A DNA stretch of 64,000 nt from positions 288,001 to 352,000 of the forward strand of contig CAVPSB010000032.1 in NCBI GenBank assembly GCA_963708025.1, read 5' to 3'. A program made the position numbers and the translations under genes. Shown here piece after piece: positions 3,594 to 45,707 of this stretch. Under the pieces are notes generated by a model that ran no database searches, was not told the origin of the DNA, and saw only the letters and a list, made by a program, of their open reading frames with translations. Each line of letters starts with the position of its first letter. Position 1 is the first letter of the stretch. This DNA is from an uncultured Candidatus Rokubacteria bacterium (lineage in GTDB: Bacteria; Methylomirabilota; Methylomirabilia; Rokubacteriales; DASRDR01).

Positions 3594-3610
3594 ATGAGTC
3601 AAGTTCTCGG

Positions 3611-3734
3611 GGGCGGGGCCGAGGAGCGAGCAGCGCTAGGACGCAGGGAGTCGCCGACCGCAGGCGTACTCCGAGTACGCCGAGGATCGGCGACGACCGA
3701 GGACGACGCGATGCGACGCTCATCGGCCCCGCCC
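3611..3734. repeat. Palindromic intergenic repeat family A, copy 1 (MITE/REP-like)
   Basis: 69-bp core 3639-3707 is identical to 12829-12897 and similar to the inverted copy within 40482-40662; ends GGGCGGGGCCGA / TCGGCCCCGCCC are inverted repeats. Confidence 0.85.
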
Positions 3735-5082: not shown

Positions 5083-6489
5083 CTAGAACAGGGGGGTGGC
5101 GGCGCGGAGGGCGGTGTCGAGGAGCGGGCGCGGGTAGAGGCCGAGGAGCACGATGGCGAGCGCGCTGACGAGGATCACGAGGGCGAGAGCCGGCGGCACC
5201 GAAACCGGCGTCGTCGTGACGGGCGGGTCGATGTACATCTGCTTGGCGACGAGCAGATAGTAGAAGAGGGCCACCACGGTCAGCACGGCACCGAGCAGCA
5301 CCAGCCCGTAAAGGCGCGCCTCCGCCGCCGCCCAGAAGACGTAGAGCTTCGCCCAGAAGCCCACCACGAAGGGGATCCCGCCCAGCGAGAGCAGGAAGAG
5401 CAGCATGGCCAGCGCCAGGAGCGGCGAGCGCTGGGCCAGCCCCCGGAACGCGGCAACGCCGGTCGATCCCTCGGCCTGGGCCACCGCCTCGACGACCAGG
5501 AAGGCCCCCATGTTCGCGAAGACGTAGGCGACCAGGTAGAAGAGGACGACGGCGACGCCGAACGGGCTCACCGCCGCCACCCCGAGCAGCATGTAGCCGA
5601 TGTGGGCGATGCCCGAGTAGGCGAGGAGCCGCTTGAGGTTCGTCTGGGGCAGCGCCATGAGGTTGCCGGCGACCATGGTGATCGCCGCCAGCGCGGCGGC
5701 CAGGGGCACCCAGACGGCCGCCCGGTCGCCGGCTCCCTCGAGGAAGACCCGGACGATGACGGCGAAGCCCGCGGCCTTGGGCGCCACCGAGAGCCAGGCG
5801 ACGAACGGCGTGGAGGCCGCCTCGTAGGTGTCGGGCACCCACATGTGGAAGGGGAAGGCCGCGATCTTGAACCCGAGGCCCGCCAGGACCAGGATGAAGC
5901 CGAGGACGAGGACCGGGTTGCCGGCGCCGAGGGCTCGGACGAGCTCGGGTACCATCGTCGTGCCGGTGGCGCCGTAGAGGAACGACAGACCATAGGCCAG
6001 GATCGCCGTGGACAGGCTCCCGACCAGGAAGAACTTCAGTCCCGCCTCCACCGCCAGCTCCTCGCGCTTGTCGAAGGCCGCCAGCACGTAGAGCGGGATC
6101 GACATCAGCTCGAAGGCGACGAAGAGCAGCACCAGCTCCCGGGCCGACGCCAGGAGCAGCATGCCGAGGAGCGAGGCCAGGATCAGGAGGTGGTACTCCG
6201 GCGCCCGCCGGTGGAACGCGGGCTGGCGGAGCGCCAGCCCGCCGACCACCCCGAGCAGCGTCGCCAGCACGAAGACCTGCTTGAAGAAGCGGGCCAGCCC
6301 GTTGACGACGTAGGCGCCCTCGAACAGGGCCCCGCGCGCGTCGAAGAGGACCGAGAGCGCCAGCAGGCCGGCCAGGCCCACCGCCGTGACGACCCCCGCC
6401 TCCCGCCGGCGGGCCGGACCCGCCACCAGACCCAGCCCGAGGACGACCAGCATGAGCCCGGCCAGCGTCAGCTCGAGCGTGAGCAGCAT
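5083..6489 (-). CDS. nuoN: NADH-quinone oxidoreductase subunit N
   Basis: C-terminal 468 aa of the long ORF; EAGLKFF, GFKIAAFPFHMWVPDTYE and KRLLAYSGIAH motifs; start overlaps nuoM stop. Confidence 0.93.
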   Translation of the reverse strand: MLLTLELTLAGLMLVVLGLGLVAGPARRREAGVVTAVGLAGLLALSVLFDARGALFEGAYVVNGLARFFKQVFVLATLLGVVGGLALRQPAFHRRAPEYHLLILASLLGMLLLASARELVLLFVAFELMSIPLYVLAAFDKREELAVEAGLKFFLVGSLSTAILAYGLSFLYGATGTTMVPELVRALGAGNPVLVLGFILVLAGLGFKIAAFPFHMWVPDTYEAASTPFVAWLSVAPKAAGFAVIVRVFLEGAGDRAAVWVPLAAALAAITMVAGNLMALPQTNLKRLLAYSGIAHIGYMLLGVAAVSPFGVAVVLFYLVAYVFANMGAFLVVEAVAQAEGSTGVAAFRGLAQRSPLLALAMLLFLLSLGGIPFVVGFWAKLYVFWAAAEARLYGLVLLGAVLTVVALFYYLLVAKQMYIDPPVTTTPVSVPPALALVILVSALAIVLLGLYPRPLLDTALRAATPLF

Positions 6490-8027
6490 CACGGCAGCAC
6501 GCCCAGCCGATCCAGCAGCGCGACCGTGGCCCGGTCGACGGGGACGAGAGCCAGGGCCGGGACGAGCCCGAAGAGGACGAGGATCGCGGAGAGGAAGACC
6601 AGGCTGAACCACTCCGGCCCCCGGGCGTCGCCGAGGTGCGCGTACTCGGCCTCTGCCAGCGGGCCCCAGAAGATCCGCCGCGCCACTCGGAGCACGTAGA
6701 TCGCCGTCAGGAAGGTGCCGGCCACCGCCGGGAAGAGCCACCACCGGTACGGCGACTGCCAGGCGCCGAGGAAGGTCAGGATCTCCGCGACGAACCCCGA
6801 GAGGCCGGGCAGCCCCAGCGAGGACAGGGCGCCCAGCGTGAACGCGGCGGCGATGCCCGGCATCCGGCGTCCGAAGCCGCCCATCCGGCCGATCTCCCGG
6901 GTGTGCGCCTTCTCGTAGATGAGGCCGACCAGGGCGAAGAAGAGTCCGGTCATGATCCCGTGGGCGAACATCTGGAAGACCGAGCCGTTCAGCCCCGCCT
7001 CCGTCAGCGTGGCCGCCCCCAGCATCACGATCCCCATGTGGGAGACCGAGGAGTAGGCGACGACGTATTTCAGGTCGGTCTGGGCCATCGCCGAGAGGGC
7101 GCCGTACACGATGTTGACGACGGCGATCGTGCCCATCAGCGGGGCCCACTCGACGGTCCCTTCCGGCAGGAGACCCATCGCGACCCGGACGATGCCGTAG
7201 GCGCCGAGCTTCATCAGCACCCCGGCGTGCAGCATCGACACGGCGGTTGGCGCCGACGCGTGGCCGTCGGGCGACCAGGTGTGGAGCGGCCAGATGCCGG
7301 CCAGGATCCCGAAGCCCACGTACAGCGCCAGGAAGACCCAGCGCTGGACCACGGGGTCGAACTCCGCCTGCTGGAGCGTCAGCAGCGAGAAGGACCGGGT
7401 GCCGGCCGCGAAGTAGAGCACGAAGATGCCGACCAGGATGAACGCCGACCCGAAGAGCAGGTACAGGGTCAGCTTCATGGCCGCGTATTCCTTCGTCCCG
7501 ACGCCCGTCGCCCGGAACGCCCACGCGAAGGGGCCTCGGGGGAGGACCCGGCCGGTCGAGCCCCAGATCCCGATCAGGAGGTACATCGGGAGGACGGCCA
7601 GCTCGTAGAAGAGGAAGAAGACGAAGAGGTCGAGCGAGACGAAGACCCCGAAGACGCCGGTGACCAGCGTGAGCAGGAGCGCGTAGAACTCCTGGTCCCG
7701 CTCCCGGACGGTCCAGGAGGCGAAGACGCCGGCGAAGATGATGATCGCGGTGAGCAGGATCAGGAGCACCGACATCCCGTCCGCCCCCAGCTCGATCGCC
7801 ACGCCGAGGGTGGGGACCAGGGAGTAACGCTCGTAGAACTGGAAGCCGCCGGTGGAGACCTGATAGGCGCCGTAGACGTAGAGCGACAGCGCGAGCGAGA
7901 TGCCGGTGGTCACCACCGCGATGCCGCGCACCGCCGCCGGTCGCCGGCGGGCGGTGAACATGATCAGGACCGCGCCGACGAACGGAGCGGCGGTGATGAG
8001 CGAGAGGACCGGCCAGCTCCCGGTCAT
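6489..8027 (-). CDS. nuoM: NADH-quinone oxidoreductase subunit M
   Basis: FFLFYELAVLPMYLLIGIWG, PLHTWSPDGHASAPT, MKLGAYG, AYSSVSHMG; ATG at 8027. Confidence 0.93.
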   Translation of the reverse strand: MTGSWPVLSLITAAPFVGAVLIMFTARRRPAAVRGIAVVTTGISLALSLYVYGAYQVSTGGFQFYERYSLVPTLGVAIELGADGMSVLLILLTAIIIFAGVFASWTVRERDQEFYALLLTLVTGVFGVFVSLDLFVFFLFYELAVLPMYLLIGIWGSTGRVLPRGPFAWAFRATGVGTKEYAAMKLTLYLLFGSAFILVGIFVLYFAAGTRSFSLLTLQQAEFDPVVQRWVFLALYVGFGILAGIWPLHTWSPDGHASAPTAVSMLHAGVLMKLGAYGIVRVAMGLLPEGTVEWAPLMGTIAVVNIVYGALSAMAQTDLKYVVAYSSVSHMGIVMLGAATLTEAGLNGSVFQMFAHGIMTGLFFALVGLIYEKAHTREIGRMGGFGRRMPGIAAAFTLGALSSLGLPGLSGFVAEILTFLGAWQSPYRWWLFPAVAGTFLTAIYVLRVARRIFWGPLAEAEYAHLGDARGPEWFSLVFLSAILVLFGLVPALALVPVDRATVALLDRLGVLP

Positions 8028-8033
8028 ATCCAA

Positions 8034-8197
8034 TAGGGGGGGGAGTCCCAACCACTCCCCCCCTAGACCCCCCCACCTGGGGGTTACGCCCCCCCACCTG
8101 GGGGTTACGCTCCCCCACCTGGGGGTTACGCCCCGTCCCCCACCTGGGGGTTACGCCCCCCCACCTGGGGGTTACGCCCCCCCACCTGGGGGTTACG
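8034..8197. repeat. Hairpin followed by six tandem copies of a ~21-bp unit CCCCCCCACCTGGGGGTTACG
   Basis: Units at 8068, 8089, 8110, 8137 (shortened), 8156 and 8177; preceded by inverted repeat TA-G8-AGT / ACT-C7-TA. Confidence 0.92.
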
Positions 8198-8240
8198 GTC
8201 TGTCTGAAGCGGTGCGTGCCATGCTGACGGCCGGATCGGC

Positions 8241-10139
8241 TCACCAGGCGCTCCAGATCACCACCAGCAGCAGGAAGCCGGCCGCGACGCCGTAGAGGTA
8301 GTCCTGGGCCCGACCGGTCTGCAGCCGCCGCAGCCCGGCCCCGGCCTGGAGGGTCCACGCGCTCGCCACGTTCACCAGGCCGTCCACCAGGTAGCGATCG
8401 ATCCACCCCACCACGCGCGCCGTCGCGAGGACGACCCCCCGGTACAGCGCCGCGTAGGCGGCGTCCAGGCCGTACCCCCGATCAGCCGCGGTGGCCAGGG
8501 GCCCGAAGGCGCGCCGGAGGGCGTCCGCGGACAGGATCTGCCGCTGGTACACCGCCCAGGCGCCGACGATCCCGGCCCCGGCGAGGACGACGGACAGGGG
8601 CGCCAGCCAGCCGGGGCCGTGCGGCAGGGCCGCCTGGACGTCCTCGCCGACGAACTGGGCCAGGCTGAGCCCGAGCCGACCGCTGGCTAGGATGCCCGCC
8701 ACGACCGAGAAGATCGCCAGCACCCACAGCGGCCCCAGCATCACCGCCGGTGGGTCGTGGGGATGGCCGGGGGCGGCGCCGGGCCCGAAGAACGCCAGGA
8801 AGATCGCACGGAACATGTAGAAGGCCGTCAGCAGCACGGTCAGCGCGAGCATGAGGAACGGCCCGACCAGGTCGGCCTCCCAGACCCCGGCCAGCACGGC
8901 CTCCTTGGAGAAGAAGCCCGAGAGCGGCGGGATGCCGGCCAGCGCCAGGGCGCCGACCACGAACACGATCGCCGTCTTCGGCATGGCCCGGCCGAGCCGG
9001 CCCATCTCGAAGAGGTCGTTGGTGTGGACGGCGTGGATCACGGCGCCGGCCGCCAGGAAGAGCAAGGCCTTGAAGAAGCCGTGGGTCAGCAGGTGGTAGA
9101 AGCCGGCCACCGGGGCGCCGGCGCCGTGGGCCGCCATCATGTAGCCGAGCTGGGAGACGGTGGAGTAGGCGAGGACGCGCTTGATGTCCCGCTGGACGAG
9201 GGCCAGCGTGGCGGCCAGCAGCGCGGTGAAGGCGCCGATCCAGGCGATGAGGACGAGGAGCTGGGGGACGGCGAAGAACAGGGGGAAGGTGCGCGCCACC
9301 AGGTACACGCCGGCGGTGACCATGGTCGCGGCGTGGATGAGCGCGGAGACCGGCGTCGGGCCCTCCATCGCGTCGGGGAGCCAGATGTGGAGCGGGAACT
9401 GGGCGCTCTTGCCCATGGCGCCGAGATAGATGAGGCCCAGGCAGAGCGCGAGGTACCGCGGCTCGATCACCCCCTGGCCCACCGTCCGGAAGAGCGAGTC
9501 GAAGGCGAACGTCCCGGTCGCGCCCCACAGGAGGACGATGCCCAGCACGAAGCCGACGTCGCCGAGGCGCGTGACCCAGAAGGCCTTGACCGCGGCGGCG
9601 GCCGCCGCCGGCCGCTGGTAGTAATAGCCGATCAGGAGGTAGGAGCAGAGCCCGACCAGCTCCCAGAAGACGAACATCTGGAGGAAGTTCGGCGCGAAGA
9701 CGAGCCCCAGCATCGAGAAGGCGAAGAGCGACTGGTAGAGGTAGTAGCGGCCGAGGCCGGCCGGCGGCTCCTCCGCGAGGTAACCGAGGGAGTAGAGCTG
9801 GACCAGGAACGCGACCAGGGCCACCAGGGCCGCCATCGCGGCGGCCAGCGGGTCCACGTAGACGCCCACGGTCGCCAGGGGCGCCCCCGTCTGCGGCAGC
9901 CAGGGGATCGTGAGCACGCTCTCGCGGCTCGGCCCGGCCCCGACCGCCAGCGACACCGTGACCGTCCGCCAGAGCCCGGCGACGAGCTGGACGGCGGCCA
10001 CGAGGGCGGCGGCCGAGCCGGCCAGCGAGACGACCGCCGCCGCCCGGCCCGCCCGGCGCAGCGGGGGGCAGACCCCGAGCACCAGGGCGGCCAGGAACGG
10101 GCCAGCGACGACCGTCAGGGCCAGGAAGGTCTCGCTCAC
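8241..10139 (-). CDS. nuoL: NADH-quinone oxidoreductase subunit L
   Basis: FWELVGLCSYLLIG, GKSAQFPLHIWLPDAMEGPTPVSALIHAATMV, KRVLAYSTVSQLGYM, C-terminal lateral helix. Confidence 0.95.
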   Translation of the reverse strand: MSETFLALTVVAGPFLAALVLGVCPPLRRAGRAAAVVSLAGSAAALVAAVQLVAGLWRTVTVSLAVGAGPSRESVLTIPWLPQTGAPLATVGVYVDPLAAAMAALVALVAFLVQLYSLGYLAEEPPAGLGRYYLYQSLFAFSMLGLVFAPNFLQMFVFWELVGLCSYLLIGYYYQRPAAAAAAVKAFWVTRLGDVGFVLGIVLLWGATGTFAFDSLFRTVGQGVIEPRYLALCLGLIYLGAMGKSAQFPLHIWLPDAMEGPTPVSALIHAATMVTAGVYLVARTFPLFFAVPQLLVLIAWIGAFTALLAATLALVQRDIKRVLAYSTVSQLGYMMAAHGAGAPVAGFYHLLTHGFFKALLFLAAGAVIHAVHTNDLFEMGRLGRAMPKTAIVFVVGALALAGIPPLSGFFSKEAVLAGVWEADLVGPFLMLALTVLLTAFYMFRAIFLAFFGPGAAPGHPHDPPAVMLGPLWVLAIFSVVAGILASGRLGLSLAQFVGEDVQAALPHGPGWLAPLSVVLAGAGIVGAWAVYQRQILSADALRRAFGPLATAADRGYGLDAAYAALYRGVVLATARVVGWIDRYLVDGLVNVASAWTLQAGAGLRRLQTGRAQDYLYGVAAGFLLLVVIWSAW

Positions 10140-10332
10140 CGGGTTATTCGGGCCGGGGGGGAGCTGCGCGCTCCTCCCCCGGTCCCCCCCTCCGGATGTC
10201 CCCTCGCAAGCGCATCCTCGGCGATTGCTTCAGGGCGCCTCCGGGCCGGGGGGGAGCTGCGCGCTCCTCCCCCGGTCCCCCCCTCCGGATGTCCCGGCGC
10301 TGGCGCAGGTTCGGCGACTCCTTCACCGCTGC
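10140..10332. repeat. Intergenic repeat family B, copy 1 (two internal units)
   Basis: CGGGCCGGGGGGGAGCTGCGCGCTCC...CCCCCCTCCGG occurs twice here and at 14175 and 14994; ends in CCTTCACCGCT. Confidence 0.85.
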
Positions 10333-10629
10333 TCAGCCCCGGAGCAGCGTCAGGTGATCCGCCTCGACGGTCCGGCGGACGCGGAAGATCACGATGACGA
10401 TCGCCAGGCCCACCGCGATCTCGGCGACGGTGATGGCGATCGTGAAGAGCGTCAGGACCCAGCCCGCGACCCCGGCGCCGTAGCGGGCGAAGGCCACGAG
10501 GTTGATGTTGACCGCGTTCAGCATCAGCTCGATGCCGAGCAGGATGCCGACCGCGTTCCGCCGGGTCAGCACGCCGAAGAGCCCGATGGCGAACACCCCG
10601 GCGGCGAGCAGTAGGTACGCCTTCAGCAC
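10333..10629 (-). CDS. nuoK: NADH-quinone oxidoreductase subunit K
   Basis: [21 protein letters not shown]...AEIAVGLAI. Confidence 0.95.
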
Positions 10630-10696
10630 GCGCCCTCCCTCGGCAAGGGGCGATGACCGACGCTGCCCGGCCCTCGCCCCGGCCCGATCCCTCGCT

Positions 10697-11194
10697 TCAA
10701 TCCTCCGTGCGCGCGACGTGGACCGCGGCCAGCAGCGCCGCCAGCAACAAGACGCCCAGCACCTCGAACGGCAGCACCCAGTCCGTCAGGAGCGCCCGCC
10801 CCAGCAACTCCGTCGTCGCCGGCCGCCCCGGCCCGGCCGGGGCCACCGGGAGGTGAGCCCGGAGCAAGACCGCGGCGACGGCCGCGAACACCGCCACCGC
10901 GACGACGGCGCCCCAGCCGATCCCCCGATTCATCTGCTGGATGCGCTCGCCGACCAGCCGCTCGGTGAGCATGATGGCGAAGACGACGATGGTCACCACG
11001 CCGCCCGCGTAGAGGAGGACCTGGGCGGCGGCGAGGAACTCGGCGTGGAGCAGGAGGAAGAGCCCCGCCGTGGCCACCAGAGCCAGGGCCAGCCACAGCA
11101 CCGAGTGAAAGAGGTTCCGGGCCAGGACGACCTGCAGGCTCCCGACGAGCAGCAGGACGGCCAGGCCGGCCAGTCCGATCGCCTCGCCGGTCAC
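10697..11194 (-). CDS. nuoJ: NADH-quinone oxidoreductase subunit J
   Basis: [21 protein letters not shown] and [17 protein letters not shown] start overlaps nuoI stop (GTGA). Confidence 0.92.
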
Positions 11195-11748
11195 TCGCTG
11201 GCGTCCGTCCCCGTGGTGGGGCGCGGCTCCCCGGCCCGGGCCCGGTCGGCTCCCCTCGGCGCCGGCGCCTGCATCGCGCGCAGGCGGGTGCCGGTCGCCC
11301 AGGACGGCGCGAACTGCTGGCCCAGCGTGTGCAGCCGGTCCTTGTCGAGCAGCAGCGTCCGGCGGTCGTCGGTGGCCAGGTCGAAGGTCTTGAGCATGAT
11401 GATCGCGTCGGTCGGGCAGACCTGGACGCACAGCTCGCAGAACTCGCAGGCGTAGAGCTCCAGGAAGAAGATCTTGGCGAAGTTCCGCTTCTCGCCCTTC
11501 AGCATCTCGACCTTGATGACCTGGGGCGGGCAGATGTACTCGCAGAGCCGGCAGCCGATGCAGTTCTCCTCGCCCGTCTCCGGATCGTAGGTGAGAGCCA
11601 GCAGCCCCCGGAAGCGCTCCGGGTACGGCCGGGTCACCTCCGGGTAGTGGACGGTGACCGGCTTGCGGAAAAGGTTCCGGAGCGTCACCCCCATCGCGGT
11701 GCCGCCGGCCCGGATCATCCGGAGCGTGGTCCGGAGCGTCTCAGCCAC
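11191..11748 (-). CDS. nuoI: NADH-quinone oxidoreductase subunit I (2x[4Fe-4S])
   Basis: VTVHYPE..RFRG; CIGCRLCEYICP and CEFCELCVQVCP ferredoxin motifs. Confidence 0.93.
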   Translation of the reverse strand: MAETLRTTLRMIRAGGTAMGVTLRNLFRKPVTVHYPEVTRPYPERFRGLLALTYDPETGEENCIGCRLCEYICPPQVIKVEMLKGEKRNFAKIFFLELYACEFCELCVQVCPTDAIIMLKTFDLATDDRRTLLLDKDRLHTLGQQFAPSWATGTRLRAMQAPAPRGADRARAGEPRPTTGTDASE

Positions 11749-12730
11749 CGCCGCCGCCTTGCAGCACCACCACGACCGCCGCCGCCAGCAGGAGGGCCAG
11801 CGAGGCGGGCAGGAACACCTTCCAGGAGAGCGCCAGGATCTGGTCGACCCGGATCCGGATGAACGACCAGCGGATCCAGACGACCAGGAGGAAGAGCATC
11901 ACCGCCTTCAGGATGAACCAGACGGGCCCGAGCCCGGCCGGCCCCGGGCCGAGCCAGCCGCCCAGGAACAGGAGCGTCCCCAGGCACGCCACCCCGAAGA
12001 GATGGGTGAACTCGGCGAGCTGGATCAGGGCGAACTTCATGCCCGAGTACTCGACACGGAAGCCGGCGACCAGCTCCGACTCCGCCTCGACGATGTCGAA
12101 GGGGATCCGGTTCTCGGAGGCGAGCGACGCGACGAGGAACGCCGCGAACGCGAGCTGGCCGAGCACGGGGTAGGTGACGAACCACCACGGATCCTGGGCG
12201 GCGACCAGGTCGCTGAGCCGCAGCGACCCCGCCAGCACGACGGGCACCAGCGCGATCAGGATGAACGGCACCTCGTACGCGATGATCTGGTTCACGGCCC
12301 GCATGGCGGAGAGGAGCGCGTACTTGTTGTTGGACCCCCAGCCGCACATGAACAGCCCGACGACCTCGAGGGAGGACACCGCCAGGACGAACAGGAGCCC
12401 GATCTGGAGGTCGGCCAGCGCCAGCCGCGGCGCGAACGGGATCGCGGCGTACATCAGGAAGGCAGGGATCAGGAAGACGATCGGCGCCAGGTTGTAAACC
12501 GGCCGGTCGGCGACGGTCGGGACGATGTCTTCCTTCAAGAGGAGCTTGAGCGCGTCGGCGATCGGCTGGAGCCAGCCGTGCGGCCGCCCGACCCGGTAGG
12601 GTCCCACCCGCGACTGGAGCCGGGCCGCGAACTTCCGCTCGAGCAGCGTCAGGTACGCGATGAACACGAGCACGCCGTTCAGCAAAATGAACGGCGGAAG
12701 CACGATCCCCACCACGTCGGCCACGCTCAT
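11741..12730 (-). CDS. nuoH: NADH-quinone oxidoreductase subunit H
   Basis: LERKFAARLQSRVGP, GWLQPIADALKLLLKED, NRIPFDIVEAESELVAGFRVEYSG; ATG at 12730. Confidence 0.95.
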   Translation of the reverse strand: MSVADVVGIVLPPFILLNGVLVFIAYLTLLERKFAARLQSRVGPYRVGRPHGWLQPIADALKLLLKEDIVPTVADRPVYNLAPIVFLIPAFLMYAAIPFAPRLALADLQIGLLFVLAVSSLEVVGLFMCGWGSNNKYALLSAMRAVNQIIAYEVPFILIALVPVVLAGSLRLSDLVAAQDPWWFVTYPVLGQLAFAAFLVASLASENRIPFDIVEAESELVAGFRVEYSGMKFALIQLAEFTHLFGVACLGTLLFLGGWLGPGPAGLGPVWFILKAVMLFLLVVWIRWSFIRIRVDQILALSWKVFLPASLALLLAAAVVVVLQGGGGG

Positions 12731-12998
12731 CCCGCGACCCCTGAGCCGGGCCGAGAACCGAGCCCGCTCATCCCGCGACCCCCGAGCCGGGCCGAGAACG
12801 GAGCAGCGCCCAAGGGAAGGCGTCCGACGGACGCAGGGAGTCGCCGACCGCAGGCGTACTCCGAGTACGCCGAGGATCGGCGACGACCGAGGACGACCAT
12901 AGGCCGGGACGGACGCCCCAGGCCGAAGGCCGTCCGATCGACGCAGGCCGAGCGCGTCACGGCCGAGATAGAGATCGCGAAGGTTCTCGGCCCGGCTC
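12725..12998. repeat. Repeat family A copy 2 with 16-bp terminal inverted repeats, plus a ~41-bp tandem duplication of the nuoH start region
   Basis: GAGCCGGGCCGAGAAC (~12784) / GTTCTCGGCCCGGCTC (~12983); GCTCATCCCGCGACCCC.GAGCCGGGCCGAGAAC at 12725 and 12766. Confidence 0.85.
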
Positions 12999-13008
12999 GG
13001 CCCGGCTC

Positions 13009-14166
13009 TCACCGGTCGACCTCGCCGAAGACTGGATCGATCGACCCCAGGATCGCGACGGCATCGGCGATCTTGTGGCCGGGAAGGATGTGGCCGGCGA
13101 CCGCCAGGTTCGAGAAGGACGCGCCCCGCCACTTCATCCGGTAGGGCTTCGTCGCGCCGTCCGACACCAGGTAGATCCCGACCTCGCCCCGCGGCCCCTC
13201 CACCCGGGCATAGGCCTCGCCCTTCGGCAGCTTCACCTGCGCCACCGACTTGACGCCGGGGCGCGAGGAGATAGGGCCGGCGGGCAGGCCGTCCAGCCCC
13301 TGCCGGACGATCCGGATCGACTCCCGGAACTCGCGCATCCGCACCCGGTAGCGGGCGAAGCAGTCGCCCTCGACCTCCACCGGGACGTCGAACTGGAAGT
13401 CCTCGTAGGAGGAGTACGGCTCGGCCCGGCGGATGTCGTGGGAGATCCCCGAGCCGCGGAGGAGCGGTCCCGAGATGCCGAGCTCCTGGGCCAGCTCCCG
13501 CGTGATGACGCCGACCCCCTGGCTGCGGACCAGGAAGATGGTGTTCCCCTCCAGCATGGCCTCGTACTCGACGAGTCGCTCCTCGATGTGGGCGAGCGTC
13601 CGCCGGCACTGCTCGGCCCATCCCTCCGGCAGGTCGTACCGCGTCCCGCCCACCTGGTGGAACCCGTAGAGGAGCCGGGCTCCGGTGAGCGCCTCGAAGA
13701 GGTCGAGGATCATCTCCCGCTCGCGGAAGCAGTAGAGGAACATGGTCGCCCCGCCCCCGAGGGCGCCGCCCATGTCCATGCACCACGTCCCCAGCCACAG
13801 GCAGTGGGAGGCGATCCGCTGCAGCTCGGCCACCAGGACCCGGAGATGCTGCGCGCGCTTCGGCACCTCGATCTGGCCGAGCTGCTCGGCGGCCCGGACG
13901 TAGGTCAGCTCGGCGGTCATCGCGGCGACGTAGTCGGTCTTCGAGGCGATCGAGGGGTACTGGACGTAGGTCAGCGTCTCGCCCAGCTTCTCGTGGCAGC
14001 GATGGAGGTAGCCGATCACCGGGTCCACCGCCACGATCGTCTCGCCCTCCAGCGTGAGGATCATCCGGAAGACGCCGTGGGCGGACGGGTGCTGCGGCCC
14101 CATGTTCATCACGAGGCGCTCGTTGCCGCCGTAGCCGTACTCGATGACCGTTCGCCCCTCGGCCAT
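13009..14166 (-). CDS. nuoD: NADH-quinone oxidoreductase subunit D
   Basis: NMGPQHPSAHGV, GYLHR, ELQRIASH, EGPRGE, C-terminal DPVFGEVDR; no NiFe cysteine motifs. Confidence 0.95.
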   Translation of the reverse strand: MAEGRTVIEYGYGGNERLVMNMGPQHPSAHGVFRMILTLEGETIVAVDPVIGYLHRCHEKLGETLTYVQYPSIASKTDYVAAMTAELTYVRAAEQLGQIEVPKRAQHLRVLVAELQRIASHCLWLGTWCMDMGGALGGGATMFLYCFREREMILDLFEALTGARLLYGFHQVGGTRYDLPEGWAEQCRRTLAHIEERLVEYEAMLEGNTIFLVRSQGVGVITRELAQELGISGPLLRGSGISHDIRRAEPYSSYEDFQFDVPVEVEGDCFARYRVRMREFRESIRIVRQGLDGLPAGPISSRPGVKSVAQVKLPKGEAYARVEGPRGEVGIYLVSDGATKPYRMKWRGASFSNLAVAGHILPGHKIADAVAILGSIDPVFGEVDR

Positions 14167-14331
14167 GGGTTAATCGGGCCGGGGGGGAGCTGCGCGCTCC
14201 ATCCGGATCGCCGCGGCGCCACGGGCCTGCGGCCCTCGGGACGCCGCGTCCCTCTGGTGGCCCGGACCCCCCCTCCGGGTTTCCCACCGTTCAGACGTCC
14301 TCGGAGATTCCTTCACCGCTTTCATCACTTC
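14167..14331. repeat. Intergenic repeat family B, copy 2
   Basis: About 110 bp nearly identical to 14987-15097; shares both ends with the copy at 10140. Confidence 0.85.
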
Positions 14332-14970
14332 TCAGTGGAGTGGGGAGAAGAAGGTCGGGATCAGGAGCTTCGACTCCTGCGCCTGCATCAGGGGATGGAA
14401 CTTCGCCCGCACCTCCTGCCAGGCGGCGTCGCTGGCCAGCCCCTTCCAGACCTCCGCCCGGTGCTGCCAGTCGCGATAGGGCCAGAAGTGGACCACCGTG
14501 TTGAGCGGGCCCACCTCGGTCTGCCAGAAGCCGACCGGCGACGAGTGCTTCTCGCGGATCGGCAGGGCCGCCTGGACCGCGCGGGCCCACTCCGCCATCG
14601 TACCGGGCCGGAGCCGGTAGATCCGGAGCTCGTACACGCCCATGCCCGTCGCCGGCCGGACGGGGTACCAGTCGAACGGCGTGAGCAGCATGTTCTCCTG
14701 GCGGGTGAGCAACGGCGCGCTGCGGGGGACGTACTCGGTCATCCAGCGCTGGTCCTTCGCCAGCCCTGCCCGCGCCTCGGCCCGGGCGGCGACGTCGGCG
14801 AACTCCCAGAGGTGGAGCGCCTGGTTCAGCGGGCCGTGCTCGGTGGTCCAGTAGCCGAGGAGCTTGCCGAAGCGGTCGCCCCGGATCGGCCGGCTGACGT
14901 TCCCGGCCAGCTCCACGAACTCGGCGAGCTTGCCCGGCTGGACCTCGTAGGTGCGCAGTTCGTGGATCAT
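14332..14970 (-). CDS. NIPSNAP family protein (two NIPSNAP domains)
   Basis: Duplicated (I/V)(H/Y)ELR.Y...PG...G.W.TE.GPLN...H.W pattern; SD GGAGGA upstream. Confidence 0.9.
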   Translation of the reverse strand: MIHELRTYEVQPGKLAEFVELAGNVSRPIRGDRFGKLLGYWTTEHGPLNQALHLWEFADVAARAEARAGLAKDQRWMTEYVPRSAPLLTRQENMLLTPFDWYPVRPATGMGVYELRIYRLRPGTMAEWARAVQAALPIREKHSSPVGFWQTEVGPLNTVVHFWPYRDWQHRAEVWKGLASDAAWQEVRAKFHPLMQAQESKLLIPTFFSPLH

Positions 14971-14984
14971 CCTGTCCTCCGGAC

Positions 14985-15142
14985 TCGGTTATTCGGGCCG
15001 GGGGGGAGCTACGCGCTCCATCCGGATCGCCGCAGCGCCTCGGGCCTGCGGCCCTCGGGACGCCGCGTCCCTCCGGTGGCCCCGGACCCCCCCTCCGAGT
15101 TTCTCGTCGCTCAAATGTCTCGGGCGATGATCTCATCGCCTC
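14985..15142. repeat. Intergenic repeat family B, copy 3
   Basis: Direct repeat of 14167-14280. Confidence 0.85.
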
Positions 15143-15613
15143 TCATCGGTACGGCGGATGGGCCGTGTTGACGGCATAGTCCTTGCGGAGCGGGTGACCC
15201 TCCCAGTCCTCGGGGAGGAGGATGCGCCGCAGATCCGGGTGCCCGTCGAACCGGATCCCGAACAGGTCGTAGCACTCGCGCTCCATCCACAGGGCGCCCC
15301 GAAAGAGCCCGGTCAAGCTCGGGCACGACGCCTCCCGGCCGATGCGCGTCTTGAAGGTCAGGCCCAGCCCGCTCTCGAGATTCTCCAGCCGGCAGACGAC
15401 GTCGAACCCGTCCGCCTTCCAGTCCACCGCGGTGAGGTGGCAGAAGTACCGGCAGCCGAGCCTGTCCCGAGCGAACCCCGCCGCCTCGGTCCAGCGCTCG
15501 ACGGGGACGGAGACGACGAGGTGCCGGGCGTCGAGCGGCCGCTTCGGGTCCTCTCCCGCCGCCTCGACCCCCAGGTGCTCGCGAATCGCGGCGAGGGCGG
15601 CTTCGAGGGTCAC
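15143..15613 (-). CDS. nuoC: NADH-quinone oxidoreductase subunit C
   Basis: LTAVDW, ERECYDLFGIRFDGHPDLRRILLPEDWEGHPLRKDY; GTG at 15613. Confidence 0.93.
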   Translation of the reverse strand: MTLEAALAAIREHLGVEAAGEDPKRPLDARHLVVSVPVERWTEAAGFARDRLGCRYFCHLTAVDWKADGFDVVCRLENLESGLGLTFKTRIGREASCPSLTGLFRGALWMERECYDLFGIRFDGHPDLRRILLPEDWEGHPLRKDYAVNTAHPPYR

Positions 15614-15621
15614 CGAGCCTG

Positions 15622-16263
15622 TCAATCGGGGGTCGGCGCGGCTGCGGGCCGCCGGCCCGTCTTCTGGAACTCCGCCACCTTCTCCTGGAGCTTCAGGATG
15701 CCGAACATCAGCGATTCCGGGGTCGGCGGGCAGCCGGGCACGTAGACGTTGACGGGGACCACCCGGTCCACGCCCTTGACCACGTGGTAGCCGTGGCGGA
15801 ACGGGCCGCCGGAATTCGCGCAGGAGCCCATCGAGATGCACCACTTGGGGTCCGCCATCTGCTCGTAGATCCGCTTGAGCATCGGCGCCATCTTGATGGT
15901 GACGGTGCCGGACACGATCATCAGGTCCGCGTGTCGGGGCGAGGCCCACGGCACCATGCCGAAGCGCTCGACGTCGAAGCGGGAGGCGAACGTCGCCATC
16001 ATCTCGATCGCGCAGCAGGCGAGTCCGAACGTCACCGGCCACATCGACGACTTCCGGGCCCAGTTGAAGATCTTCTCGGTGGAGGCGACCATGAGCCAGC
16101 CGCCCGGGAAATGCTCCAGCCGGTCGGCCAGGCTCGAGAAAGTCTCCGAGATCTGGTCCCCGTCGACGCGCTCCTGACGGTACTTCACCCACTGCTGGAG
16201 GTCCTTGAACTCCTCCCACTCGACCGGCGGGATGGCGTACGGTGTCGGGGGAGGCGCTTTCAT
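15622..16263 (-). CDS. nuoB: NADH-quinone oxidoreductase subunit B
   Basis: [36 protein letters not shown] at 16263 overlaps nuoA stop (ATGA). Confidence 0.96.
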
Positions 16264-16625
16264 CTCCACGCCAGCACCCCCTCCCGGTACGCGTACAGCC
16301 AGCCGAGCAGCAGGATGCCCAGGAACACCAGCATGGGGGCGAGGGCGGCCCAGCCGAGCGCGCGCAGGACCAGGGCCCACGGGAAGAGGAAGACCGCCAG
16401 CGCGTCGAAGACGATGAAGAGCAGCGCCACCAGGTAGAAGCCCACCGGGAACTGGATCCAGGCCGAGCCGATCGGTTCCGGCCCGCACTCGTAGCTGTCG
16501 AGCTTGACTGGATTCGGCCGAGCCGGCCGGACGATGCGGGCCACGGTCAGGCTCACGACGGAGAACGCGACGATCATGGCGAGGAACACGAGGACCGGCA
16601 GGTATTCGGTCACGGCGGGCCTCAT
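16260..16625 (-). CDS. nuoA: NADH-quinone oxidoreductase subunit A (true start possibly GTG at 16613)
   Basis: [27 protein letters not shown]. Confidence 0.94.
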
Positions 16626-27400: not shown

Positions 27401-28849
27401 CTACGCCTGGCTCACGATCGGGGGCCAGCGGTCCTTCCACGGACTGGCGGCCTCGAACGCGGCGGACGCCGCGAGCACGAGCGGGTCGTCGAGGTGCCGG
27501 CCGACGATCTGCATGCCCACGGGCAGGCCATCGTCCGTCCAGCCGGCGGGGACCGTCGCGGCGGGCTGCCCCGTCATGTTGATCGGGAACGTGAAGGACA
27601 GCCAGTGATTCGGGCTGACCTTCCGCCCCGCGATCTCCTCCGGCCCCTGGATGCCGACCGGGAAAGGCGGGACGCCGAGCGTGGGGGTGAGCAGGAGGTC
27701 GTATCGGCGCATGAACTTCCACATCGTGTTGTAGAGCCCCTTCCGACCGACGACGGCGTCGGTCAGCTCCTCGGCCGTCCATGGCAGGCGCAGGAACTCG
27801 ACGAGGTGAGGCGACATCCGCTCGCCGAGGCGGTCCGCCAGCGCGCGCATGCCGCGCAGATCCGTGTCGAGCGCCACCAGGCCCCAGAAGATGGGCTCGG
27901 GGTCGGTCCAGCCCGGATGCGCCTCCTCGACGACGCAGCCGAGATCACGCTCGAAGACCCGGACCGCCTGCCCGACGATCTCGCGGACGCGGCGGTCCAC
28001 CGCCGCGTAGCCCCAGTCCGCGCTGTAGGCGACCCGGAGCCCTCGCACGTCCCGCCGGAGCGCCTCCCGCCAGTCGAAGTTCGGCCAGGGCCGGCTGTGC
28101 CGATCGCGGGGGTCGGGACCGGCGATCACCGAGAGCACCAGCGCCGCGTCGGCCACGGTGCGGCTGATGGGACCGATGTGCTCCAGGGACTCCCAGCTCG
28201 AGACGCCGGGATAGCGCTCGTCGCGGCATCCGGGGTAGAGCGGGACGCGACCCATCGAGGCCTTGATGCCGTAGAGGCCGCAGAAGCTCGACGGGATGCG
28301 GATGGAGCCGCCACCATCGCTGGCGATGGCCACCGGTCCCATTCCGGTAGCGACCGCCACCGCCGAGCCGCCGCTCGAGCCGCCGCAGTTCAGCGTCGTG
28401 TTCCAGGGGTTGCGGCTCGTCTCGAACACGGGGTTGATGGTCGTCCCGCTATAGCCGAACTCGGGCACGTTGGTCTTCCCCAGCCCGATCGCCCCCGCCG
28501 CCCGCAGCCGCTCCACCACGACGTCGTCCTCGTCGGGGACGAAGTCGGCGTAGGCGAGCGACCCCGAGACGGTCCGGACGCCGCGGGTGAGGACGAGATC
28601 CTTGATCCCCAGGGGCACACCCGCCATCGGCCCCACGTCCTTCCCGGCCATGATGTCGCGCTCGAGGCGCCGGGCGTCGGCCCGCGCCACGCCCGGGGTC
28701 GGGGTGCAGAAGGCGTGGAGCCGCGGCTCGAGCGTCTGCATGCGATCGAGCACTGCCTCCACCACTTCCACCGGCGAGAGCTTCCGGGCGCGGACGAGTC
28801 CGGCGAGGGCGACGGCGTCGAGCCGGCAGATCTCGTCGTTGTTCGGCAT
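27401..28849 (-). CDS. Amidase signature family protein
   Basis: [38 protein letters not shown] at 28849 with GGGAGG. Confidence 0.93.
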
Positions 28850-40482: not shown

Positions 40483-40662
40483 CGGCAGGGGCGATGAGCT
40501 TCGCGATGTTCGACCTCGGCCGGGACGCGCTCGGCCTACGGCCTCGCGTCCGTCCCGACCTATGGTCGTCCTCGGTCGTCGCCGATCCTCGGCGTACTCG
40601 GAGTACGCCTCCGGTCGGCTCCTCCCTGCGTCCTAGCGCTGCTCGCTCCTCGCCCCTGCCGC
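40482..40662. repeat. Repeat family A copy 3 (inverted) with terminal inverted repeats
   Basis: GCGGCAGGGGCGA / TCGCCCCTGCCGC ends; GGCGTACTCGGAGTACGCC palindrome. Confidence 0.85.
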
Positions 40663-40694
40663 CGAGACCGTGACTCTCGGTCCGGGAGGATGAT

Positions 40695-44270: not shown

Positions 44271-44329
44271 GTGGCCGTGACGCTCACTCCGGCGCACACT
44301 CGGGCTTCGGCGACCACTCGCGGTGCTGC
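44271..44329. repeat. 59-bp direct repeat, left copy
   Basis: 58/59 identical to 45649-45707. Confidence 0.92.
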
Positions 44330-45648: not shown

Positions 45649-45707
45649 GTGGCCGTGACGGTCACTCCGGCGCACACTCGGGCTTCGGCGACCACTCGCG
45701 GTGCTGC
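45649..45707. repeat. 59-bp direct repeat, right copy
   Basis: 58/59 identical to 44271-44329. Confidence 0.92.

Follow-up and report, generated by a model that had tools for sequence, protein, structure and literature searches.

How can a compact bacterial operon take repetitive DNA into the junctions between its genes and still have the downstream genes translated? The question is raised by a stretch of 64,000 nucleotides (nt) from an uncultured Candidatus Rokubacteria bacterium (assembly GCA_963708025.1, contig CAVPSB010000032.1, positions 288,001 to 352,000; hereafter the window, numbered from its first letter), in which four copies of a short intergenic repeat, family B, fill three junctions of the nuo operon. 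A preliminary description of this DNA had proposed that mini open reading frames (mini-ORFs) within the repeats relay ribosomes from one gene to the next. Our analysis of the sequence favours, with a probability of roughly one half, the reading that family B is a mobile, mosaic repeat that sits directly behind stop codons and, by means of an ORF of its own, keeps translational coupling intact.

All four copies, located by repeat finding at the places given to them in the preliminary description, are on the minus strand and within the nuo operon (Table 1). The nuoK-nuoL junction is occupied by a tandem pair of 93-nt units (10149-10241 and 10242-10334), through both of which a single mini-ORF runs to a stop codon 4 nt before the GTG start of nuoL; the second unit opens with the codon CTG (10233), which is not a start codon. 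The junction between the NIPSNAP-family gene and nuoD holds a long-form copy whose mini-ORF ends 3 nt before the nuoD ATG and whose nested insert, a net addition of 57 nt, keeps the frame. The mini-ORFs of the window begin 6 nt downstream of the stop codon of the upstream gene. Neither nuoL nor nuoD has a recognizable Shine-Dalgarno (SD) sequence, in that no SD-like tetramer was found in the 30 nt upstream of their starts; such a tetramer is present before NIPSNAP, nuoK and an amidase gene. In the remaining long-form copy, between nuoC and NIPSNAP, the insert is one base longer, and the frame opened at ATG 15136 bypasses the closing TAA (14991-14989) and continues into NIPSNAP. This sole broken copy precedes a gene with an SD of its own (GGAGGA, 5-10 nt upstream of the ATG). 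The arrangement of the three junctions, as first described, is thus borne out by the measured coordinates, insert lengths and translations.

The operon in which these copies lie reads nuoA, nuoB, nuoC, the NIPSNAP-family gene, nuoD, nuoH, nuoI, nuoJ, nuoK, nuoL, nuoM and nuoN by Pfam assignment, all on the minus strand of a window with 70.7% G+C. At the undisturbed nuoA/nuoB and nuoI/nuoJ junctions, the stop and start codons overlap, and at nuoB/nuoC the stop is followed by 8 nt and a GTG start. Because other nuo junctions show such overlaps or short gaps between stop and start, coupling is the normal mode of the operon.

Further copies come from a second genome. The genome_contigs collection, in which the source genome of the window is not included, was scanned with the most conserved 21-mer of family B, and nine loci were obtained. 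Six of them carry true short-form copies, all in one metagenome-assembled genome (MAG) labelled Ca. Methylomirabilota bacterium, with one copy cut by a contig end. The other three (L004, L006 and L007) were rejected as chance matches that share the 21-mer and no other part of the element. Two of these, L006 and L007, are contigs of about 70% G+C filed under Microcystis and Asaia assemblies, a composition that looks foreign to both genera and would suggest contaminant contigs. A profile search of the short form with nhmmer over the window and all nine loci yielded no further copies.

The placement of the copies is regular in both genomes. At all three window junctions, the element begins at the TGA stop codon of the upstream gene and reads in the sense of that gene, and the same holds for each of the five MAG copies with upstream sequence; every copy (4/4 in the window and 6/6 in the MAG) has the orientation of the gene or genes next to it. 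Pfam confirms four of the five upstream and four of the six downstream MAG ORFs, and the junctions occupied in the MAG belong to ABC-transporter and catabolic operons. In both subfamilies, the terminal stop codon occupies the same alignment column, but the codon itself is TAA in the window copies and TGA in those of the MAG. At five junctions, two in the window and three in the MAG, 3-5 nt separate the mini-ORF stop from the following start codon; at four, the distance is greater. At one of the more distant junctions, L008, hexamers resembling -35 and -10 boxes (at about 1535-1565 of the locus; seen by eye and not scored with a tool) stand right after the family B copy, so that this copy apparently lies at an operon's end. 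CTGA is found at both ends of all five complete MAG copies and is identical everywhere, so that a target duplication is indistinguishable from the termini of the element; the window copies end otherwise. The Liv-type permease and ATPase genes of the window share 34-48% identity with the genes at L003 and L009 and are therefore paralogues, from which no empty-site comparison is possible.

Alignment of all copies resolves a unit of about 93-96 nt (about 150 nt with the insert) into four parts: a leader that adjoins the stop of the upstream gene and measures 6 nt, or 15 nt in a single copy; a 5' module of 14 nt that opens with the start codon; a stretch of about 25 nt that is roughly half divergent between copies, with identical length in eight of the nine complete copies; and a core of about 47 nt, the end of which is the stop codon of the element. 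The core of every short form folds as a GC-rich hairpin of about 15 pairs and is nearly identical in the two genomes, the MAG core differing from that of the window short forms at one position. In the long forms, w3 and w4, the nested insert splits the 5' arm of this hairpin. A relative of the insert occurs in one copy (C2) of a second repeat family, family C, and the nuoD-nuoH junction contains a part of it in inverted form; because of this recurrence, the elements are mosaics of modules. Both families appear to be non-autonomous mosaic intergenic repeats that are mobile or spread by recombination. Terminal inverted repeats are absent from family B, the 5' module and the 3' end being unrelated; no transposase, of the RAYT type or any other, was found among the 25 window ORFs scanned; and the tandem pair had no blastn match in the plasmid collection.

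On either side of the NIPSNAP gene, at its place between nuoC and nuoD, stands one of the two long-form copies (14170-15142); the two are in direct orientation and share 89% identity over 117 nt. This gene may have entered the operon via recombination between family B copies.

Under the favoured reading, the element would enter immediately 3' of a (C)TGA stop codon and bring a terminal stop of its own, so that the former distance between stop and start would become the distance between the mini-ORF stop and the next start. Ribosomes terminating at the upstream gene would re-initiate on the mini-ORF 6 nt away, melt the core hairpin as they translate through it, terminate 3-5 nt before the next start, which lacks an SD, and re-initiate there. 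Coupling would thereby survive an insertion of 165-193 nt that would otherwise break it, and the peptide made on the way would have no function.

The anatomy fits this relay, in the position of the start 6 nt after the upstream stop and in the stop 3-5 nt before the next start at five junctions, but the proposed correlation with SD-less genes does not reach significance. It had been expected that intact mini-ORFs would track downstream genes without an SD. The ORF is intact in 4/4 tight and 3/4 loose junctions, a difference that is not significant. For each junction, we asked how often 5000 dinucleotide shuffles contain an ORF that starts at most 20 nt from the upstream stop and ends at most 10 nt from the downstream start. 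Such an ORF appeared in 42 of 5000 shuffles for nuoK-nuoL and in 71 of 5000 for NIPSNAP-nuoD; across the seven junctions tested, the counts ranged from 41 to 112 per 5000 (0.8-2.2%), and the ORF is really present in four of the seven. These counts are not independent trials, given that the copies share ancestry, and the question of the frame turns on later changes. Four copies or pairs bear indels within the ORF, and three of them keep the frame: besides the 57-nt insert, a 3-nt difference at the inner boundary of the tandem removes the inner stop with the frame kept, and in the L008 mini-ORF a -1 and a +1 indel cancel. With p ~0.11 under a one-third null, this is suggestive but not significant evidence for the preliminary idea that indel lengths favour multiples of three.

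Several further observations weigh against the relay. The 10 DNA copies come from two genomes and are related by descent. If the terminal stop is there for some other reason, for example as part of the CTGA motif, a start in the same frame and an open frame could come about by chance in roughly 10% of cases, by our estimate. No SD precedes the start of the mini-ORF, and ribosomes translating it would meet an internal GC-rich hairpin of about 15 pairs; the folding energies of the two long forms (z = 0.12 and -2.07 against shuffles) are not clearly better than those of the shuffled sequences. The ORF is intact where coupling is not needed (L001, 38 nt; L008, about 80 nt), and the compensated frameshift was found, of all copies, in L008. 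Variable sites are distributed over codon positions 1, 2 and 3 as 29, 26 and 35, with no codon-position signal.

Much of this would also be expected if the repeat were selfish or structural in nature, an element of the REP (repetitive extragenic palindrome) or MITE (miniature inverted-repeat transposable element) type in which the open frame is an untranslated, inherited accident and the downstream genes are either SD-independent or have received their copies too recently for a visible cost. The conservation of the core at every codon position and the variation of the 5' half without periodicity are consistent with such an element, as are a G+C content at third codon positions (GC3) unlike that of genuine genes, an ORF that stays intact regardless of need, and frame statistics short of significance. 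Moreover, open frames are common at 70.7% G+C, and the tandem pair contains a second fully open frame (frame 2). What this explanation leaves unaccounted for is the translation of nuoL and nuoD, which lack an SD and follow closely on a strong hairpin, at a distance of 165-193 nt from the stop codon of the preceding gene; the design with a start at the 5' end and a stop at the 3' end, seen in 1-2% of shuffles; and the retention of a terminal stop in both subfamilies although the codon differs (TGA or TAA). On balance, we consider this explanation the main rival, though somewhat unlikely, and the relay the better account of the junctions.

The variation within the element also bears on whether the peptide is of any consequence. 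Across the two genomes, none of the three codon positions varies in the conserved core, and the 5' half is variable without a codon pattern; selection therefore appears to act on the core as DNA or RNA, through its sequence or its structure, and not on the peptide. In the mini-ORFs, GC3 is 0.73-0.82, compared to 0.83-0.97 in the window genes. The suggestion in the preliminary description that the repeats deliver peptides rich in Arg, Pro and Gly finds no support in this pattern; at most, selection could maintain a start codon, an open frame and a stop codon as such.

It is accordingly very improbable that the mini-ORFs are genuine genes for functional small proteins of this composition. The single observation in their favour is that the protein collections contain three related ORFs (P0004-P0006), all in the mini-ORF frame and called hypothetical proteins in metagenomes. 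Each of the three is a tandem dimer read through its inner boundary, the units being 32, 28 and 32 residues long. A search among proteins of near length gave 2 matches in 33 candidates, and the library of 1.84 billion representative proteins gave 3, very few for a functional protein; among proteins of 30-32 residues, no relatives were found, a single unit being, at 29 residues, below that band. These searches are blind to single copies and biased toward intact read-through dimers. As a control, the other fully open frame of the window dimer yielded none among 270 candidates at E <= 0.01, a contrast that counts in favour of the relay reading. Pfam gave no match for six mini-ORF peptides, and the absence of an excess of variation at third positions, an N-terminal half that differs almost wholly between copies, and the tolerance of both a 19-residue insert and a doubling all argue against a functional product.

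The core hairpin is the part of the element that appears to be under sequence selection, and it is most likely the recognition structure for whatever spreads the element. A different explanation for its conservation is a role at the RNA level, in which the hairpin would stabilize the message between cistrons, be processed or bind a protein, and so adjust how abundant the segments of the operon are relative to one another. The conserved stem of the short forms, the near-identity of the 47-nt core in the two genomes, the location of every copy on the sense strand of transcribed operons, and the fact that two more junctions of the nuo operon hold hairpin-rich repeats of two other types are all compatible with such a role. 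However, Rfam returned no family, either for the whole window at gathering scores or for 10100-15200 at E <= 1; the stem is invariant, so that there is no covariation to count; no terminator-like or promoter-like site was found in the family B elements and no U-tract follows the hairpin; and the insert splits the 5' arm in the long forms. In addition, a hairpin under translation cannot double as a stable barrier to exonucleases. A function in RNA could coexist with the relay but is, in our view, quite unlikely.

The preliminary description had put the repeats forward as an undescribed kind of system. Translational coupling by mycobacterial interspersed repetitive units (MIRUs) is reportedly attributed to Supply et al. 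1997. As far as the available portions of two papers go, the same logic has already been published for MIRUs (PMC12548453, a 2025 review of translational coupling, and PMC3184786, a review of 2011), and the claim of novelty in kind does not hold. MIRUs are elements of 40-100 bp that are transcribed in polycistronic messages and contain internal inverted repeats rich in G-C; direct repeats of a tetranucleotide border the filled sites, and the MIRU ORFs overlap the adjacent genes (PMC3184786). According to the accessible text of PMC12548453, the MIRU ORF becomes coupled to the neighbouring gene with a -4 spacing, which likely minimizes the impact on expression. Family B resembles these elements, so far as those accounts describe them, in being a short repeat of polycistronic operons, co-oriented with the genes and present in the window as a tandem pair, with a built-in ORF that would be coupled to a neighbouring gene, so that insertion would have little effect on expression; the CTGA at the ends of the MAG copies may or may not correspond to the tetranucleotide direct repeats of MIRUs. 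The geometry is different: by the same accounts, MIRU ORFs overlap the stop and start codons of the neighbours and the elements insert at start codons, whereas family B abuts the upstream stop, and its spacings, +6 nt at the start and +3 to +5 nt at the stop of the mini-ORF, are compatible with termination and re-initiation. Family B also belongs to another host lineage, its nearest copies being in the Ca. Methylomirabilota MAG, and has a strong, nearly invariant hairpin core and nested inserts, a comparison made with descriptions of MIRUs and not with their sequences. A full-text literature search, in which most subscription journals were not covered, found no description of such elements outside mycobacteria. 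Taken together, it is plausible that family B works like MIRUs, with a relay that is unproven and not new in kind.

Other known repeats are more distant. The REPs and bacterial interspersed mosaic elements of enterobacteria and pseudomonads are likewise short GC-rich hairpin repeats of intergenic regions in operons, clustered as mosaics of modules, but they occur in both orientations, and neither a designated frame nor abutment of stop codons is described for them in the available part of PMC3184786 or in general knowledge. Compared to REPs and their RAYT transposases, family B has a palindromic core and a single orientation in 10 of 10 copies. MITEs that fuse frames to genes (Correia, RUP, Nezha and RPE, among others) are small, non-autonomous and cotranscribed, contain internal stem-loops, and sometimes supply stop codons, start codons or in-frame segments, according to the passages available from PMC3184786. 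In contrast to these, family B has no terminal inverted repeats, is strictly oriented, and provides a separate ORF between genes instead of a gene extension. Engineered bicistronic designs (cited in PMC12548453) share the short ORF that ends at or next to the target start, with ribosomes that melt structure and re-initiate; they are synthetic, have an SD of their own and include no repeat. Three further candidates were dropped: integron attC sites, as the genes form a conserved nuo operon and are not cassettes (a judgement made without a test for the core-site motif); a CRISPR-like array of repeats and spacers, as there are two units only and the 'spacer' has the shared module; and recoding or read-through of the upstream TGA, as ordinary genes of the window end in TGA.

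Family C consists of two elements that combine the leader and 5' module of family B and a similar 3' end with a different hairpin, made of a G-run and a C-run. The shared frame noted for this family in the preliminary description is real in so far as the shared modules stand in one frame, but it lacks an in-frame stop at the end of the element. In C1, the frame comprises 41 codons and runs past the end of the element to a TAG at 42383-42381, and the downstream gene is convergent, so that there is nothing to relay to. In C2, the frame from GTG 29056 stays open, without a stop, into the ATG of the amidase gene at 28849, to which it would add 69 residues; the amidase gene has its own SD. Neither copy thus forms a relay cassette, which counts against the relay reading.

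Table 1. Family B and family C elements, mini-ORFs and adjoining genes of the window, and family B copies of the Ca. Methylomirabilota MAG
Feature	Position	Strand	Details
Family B unit w2, short form	10242-10332	minus	6-nt leader after nuoK stop; GTG 10326; variable stretch; core hairpin ~10243-10279
Family B unit w1, short form, second of tandem	10144-10241	minus	Core hairpin ~10150-10186; TAA 10146-10144
Mini-ORF 1 (P0001)	10144-10326	minus	60 codons and stop; GTG 10326 through both units to TAA 10146-10144
Family B long form w3, NIPSNAP-nuoD junction	14170-14331	minus	Nested insert 14205-14261 (57 nt)
Mini-ORF 2 (P0002)	14170-14325	minus	51 codons and stop; ATG 14325, in-frame GTG 14316, TAA 14172-14170
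Family B long form w4, nuoC-NIPSNAP junction	14989-15142	minus	Nested insert 15024-15081 (58 nt, one base extra)
nuoL	8241-10139	minus	Pfam; GTG start 10139; downstream of mini-ORF 1; without SD
nuoK	10333-10629	minus	PF00420; upstream of mini-ORF 1; stop codon 10335-10333
nuoD	13009-14166	minus	Pfam; ATG start 14166; downstream of mini-ORF 2; without SD
NIPSNAP-family gene	14332-14970	minus	PF07978; ATG 14970; stop 14334-14332; long-form family B copy on either side
Spacer before NIPSNAP	14971-14988	minus	Contains the GGAGGA SD site of NIPSNAP
Family C copy C2	28892-29062	minus	42 nt after 2Fe-2S subunit gene; nested insert related to long-form family B
Family C copy C1	42410-42515	minus	Directly after TAG of 5'-nucleotidase gene; GTG 42506
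MAG locus L001			Between solute-binding protein gene and pdxA; mini-ORF stop to next start 38 nt
MAG locus L002			Neither flanking ORF with Pfam match; mini-ORF stop to next start 11 nt
MAG locus L003			Between two Liv-type permease genes; mini-ORF stop to next start (permease) 5 nt
MAG locus L005			Between TPP-enzyme gene and TIM-barrel gene; mini-ORF stop to next start 5 (or 11) nt
MAG locus L008			After ABC ATPase gene; mini-ORF stop to next start ~80 nt, beyond promoter-like hexamers
MAG locus L009			Before ABC ATPase gene; mini-ORF stop to next start 4 nt

The window contains several other repeats. The nuoD-nuoH junction (12724-13008, minus strand) holds a different one, with perfect terminal inverted arms of 17-18 nt (12743-12759 and 12782-12799 against 12982-13000), and a 41-nt tandem duplication at 12724-12804 takes in the start region of nuoH. 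An ORF of 77 codons in this junction runs from GTG 12960 to TGA 12729-12727, where its stop and the nuoH start codon (ATG 12730) overlap within four bases; because of this overlap, the second repeat type of the operon also ends in a coupling arrangement. The nuoL-nuoM junction (8068-8197, minus strand) is for the most part taken up by six tandem 21-nt units, one of them 25 nt long, each a small hairpin of a C-run and a G-run with a TAA; the start of nuoM may be either TTG 8051, behind a G-rich SD-like run, or ATG 8027. A third repeat module is found at 3596-3707, 12829-12916 and 40546-40676, with 93-100% identity and an internal 22-nt palindrome (12840-12884), that is, after a sigma-factor gene, inside the nuoD-nuoH element and, inverted, before a luciferase-like monooxygenase gene. 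Elsewhere, a class-V aminotransferase gene is flanked by a 59-nt direct repeat (44271-44329 and 45649-45707, 98% identity). As to gene content, the nuo operon (5083-16625) is, within the window, of the 11-subunit type plus NIPSNAP, with nuoE, nuoF and nuoG missing from the interval between nuoD and nuoH, and nuoN (5083-6492), confirmed by Pfam, lies within the frame of a 1107-codon ORF.

A broader interpretation of family B is that mobile elements outside the actinobacteria seek out stop codons and carry a termination-reinitiation cassette, by which they would colonize tight gene junctions in essential operons (nuo, for example) without polarity and could slot genes into operons by recombination; we advance this tentatively and regard it as rather unlikely. 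Should the relay prove not to exist, what remains is simply a repeat-rich nuo operon. If the relay is real, the strategy of MIRUs would be a convergent solution for repeats that dwell in operons and no mycobacterial oddity, and it would explain the expression of SD-less genes behind inserted hairpins. Such mini-ORFs would then be relays and not genes, which is a warning for annotation, and the element would represent a natural, portable coupling cassette, that is, a bicistronic adaptor. Under the same condition, the cost of selfish DNA within compact operons would become directly testable.

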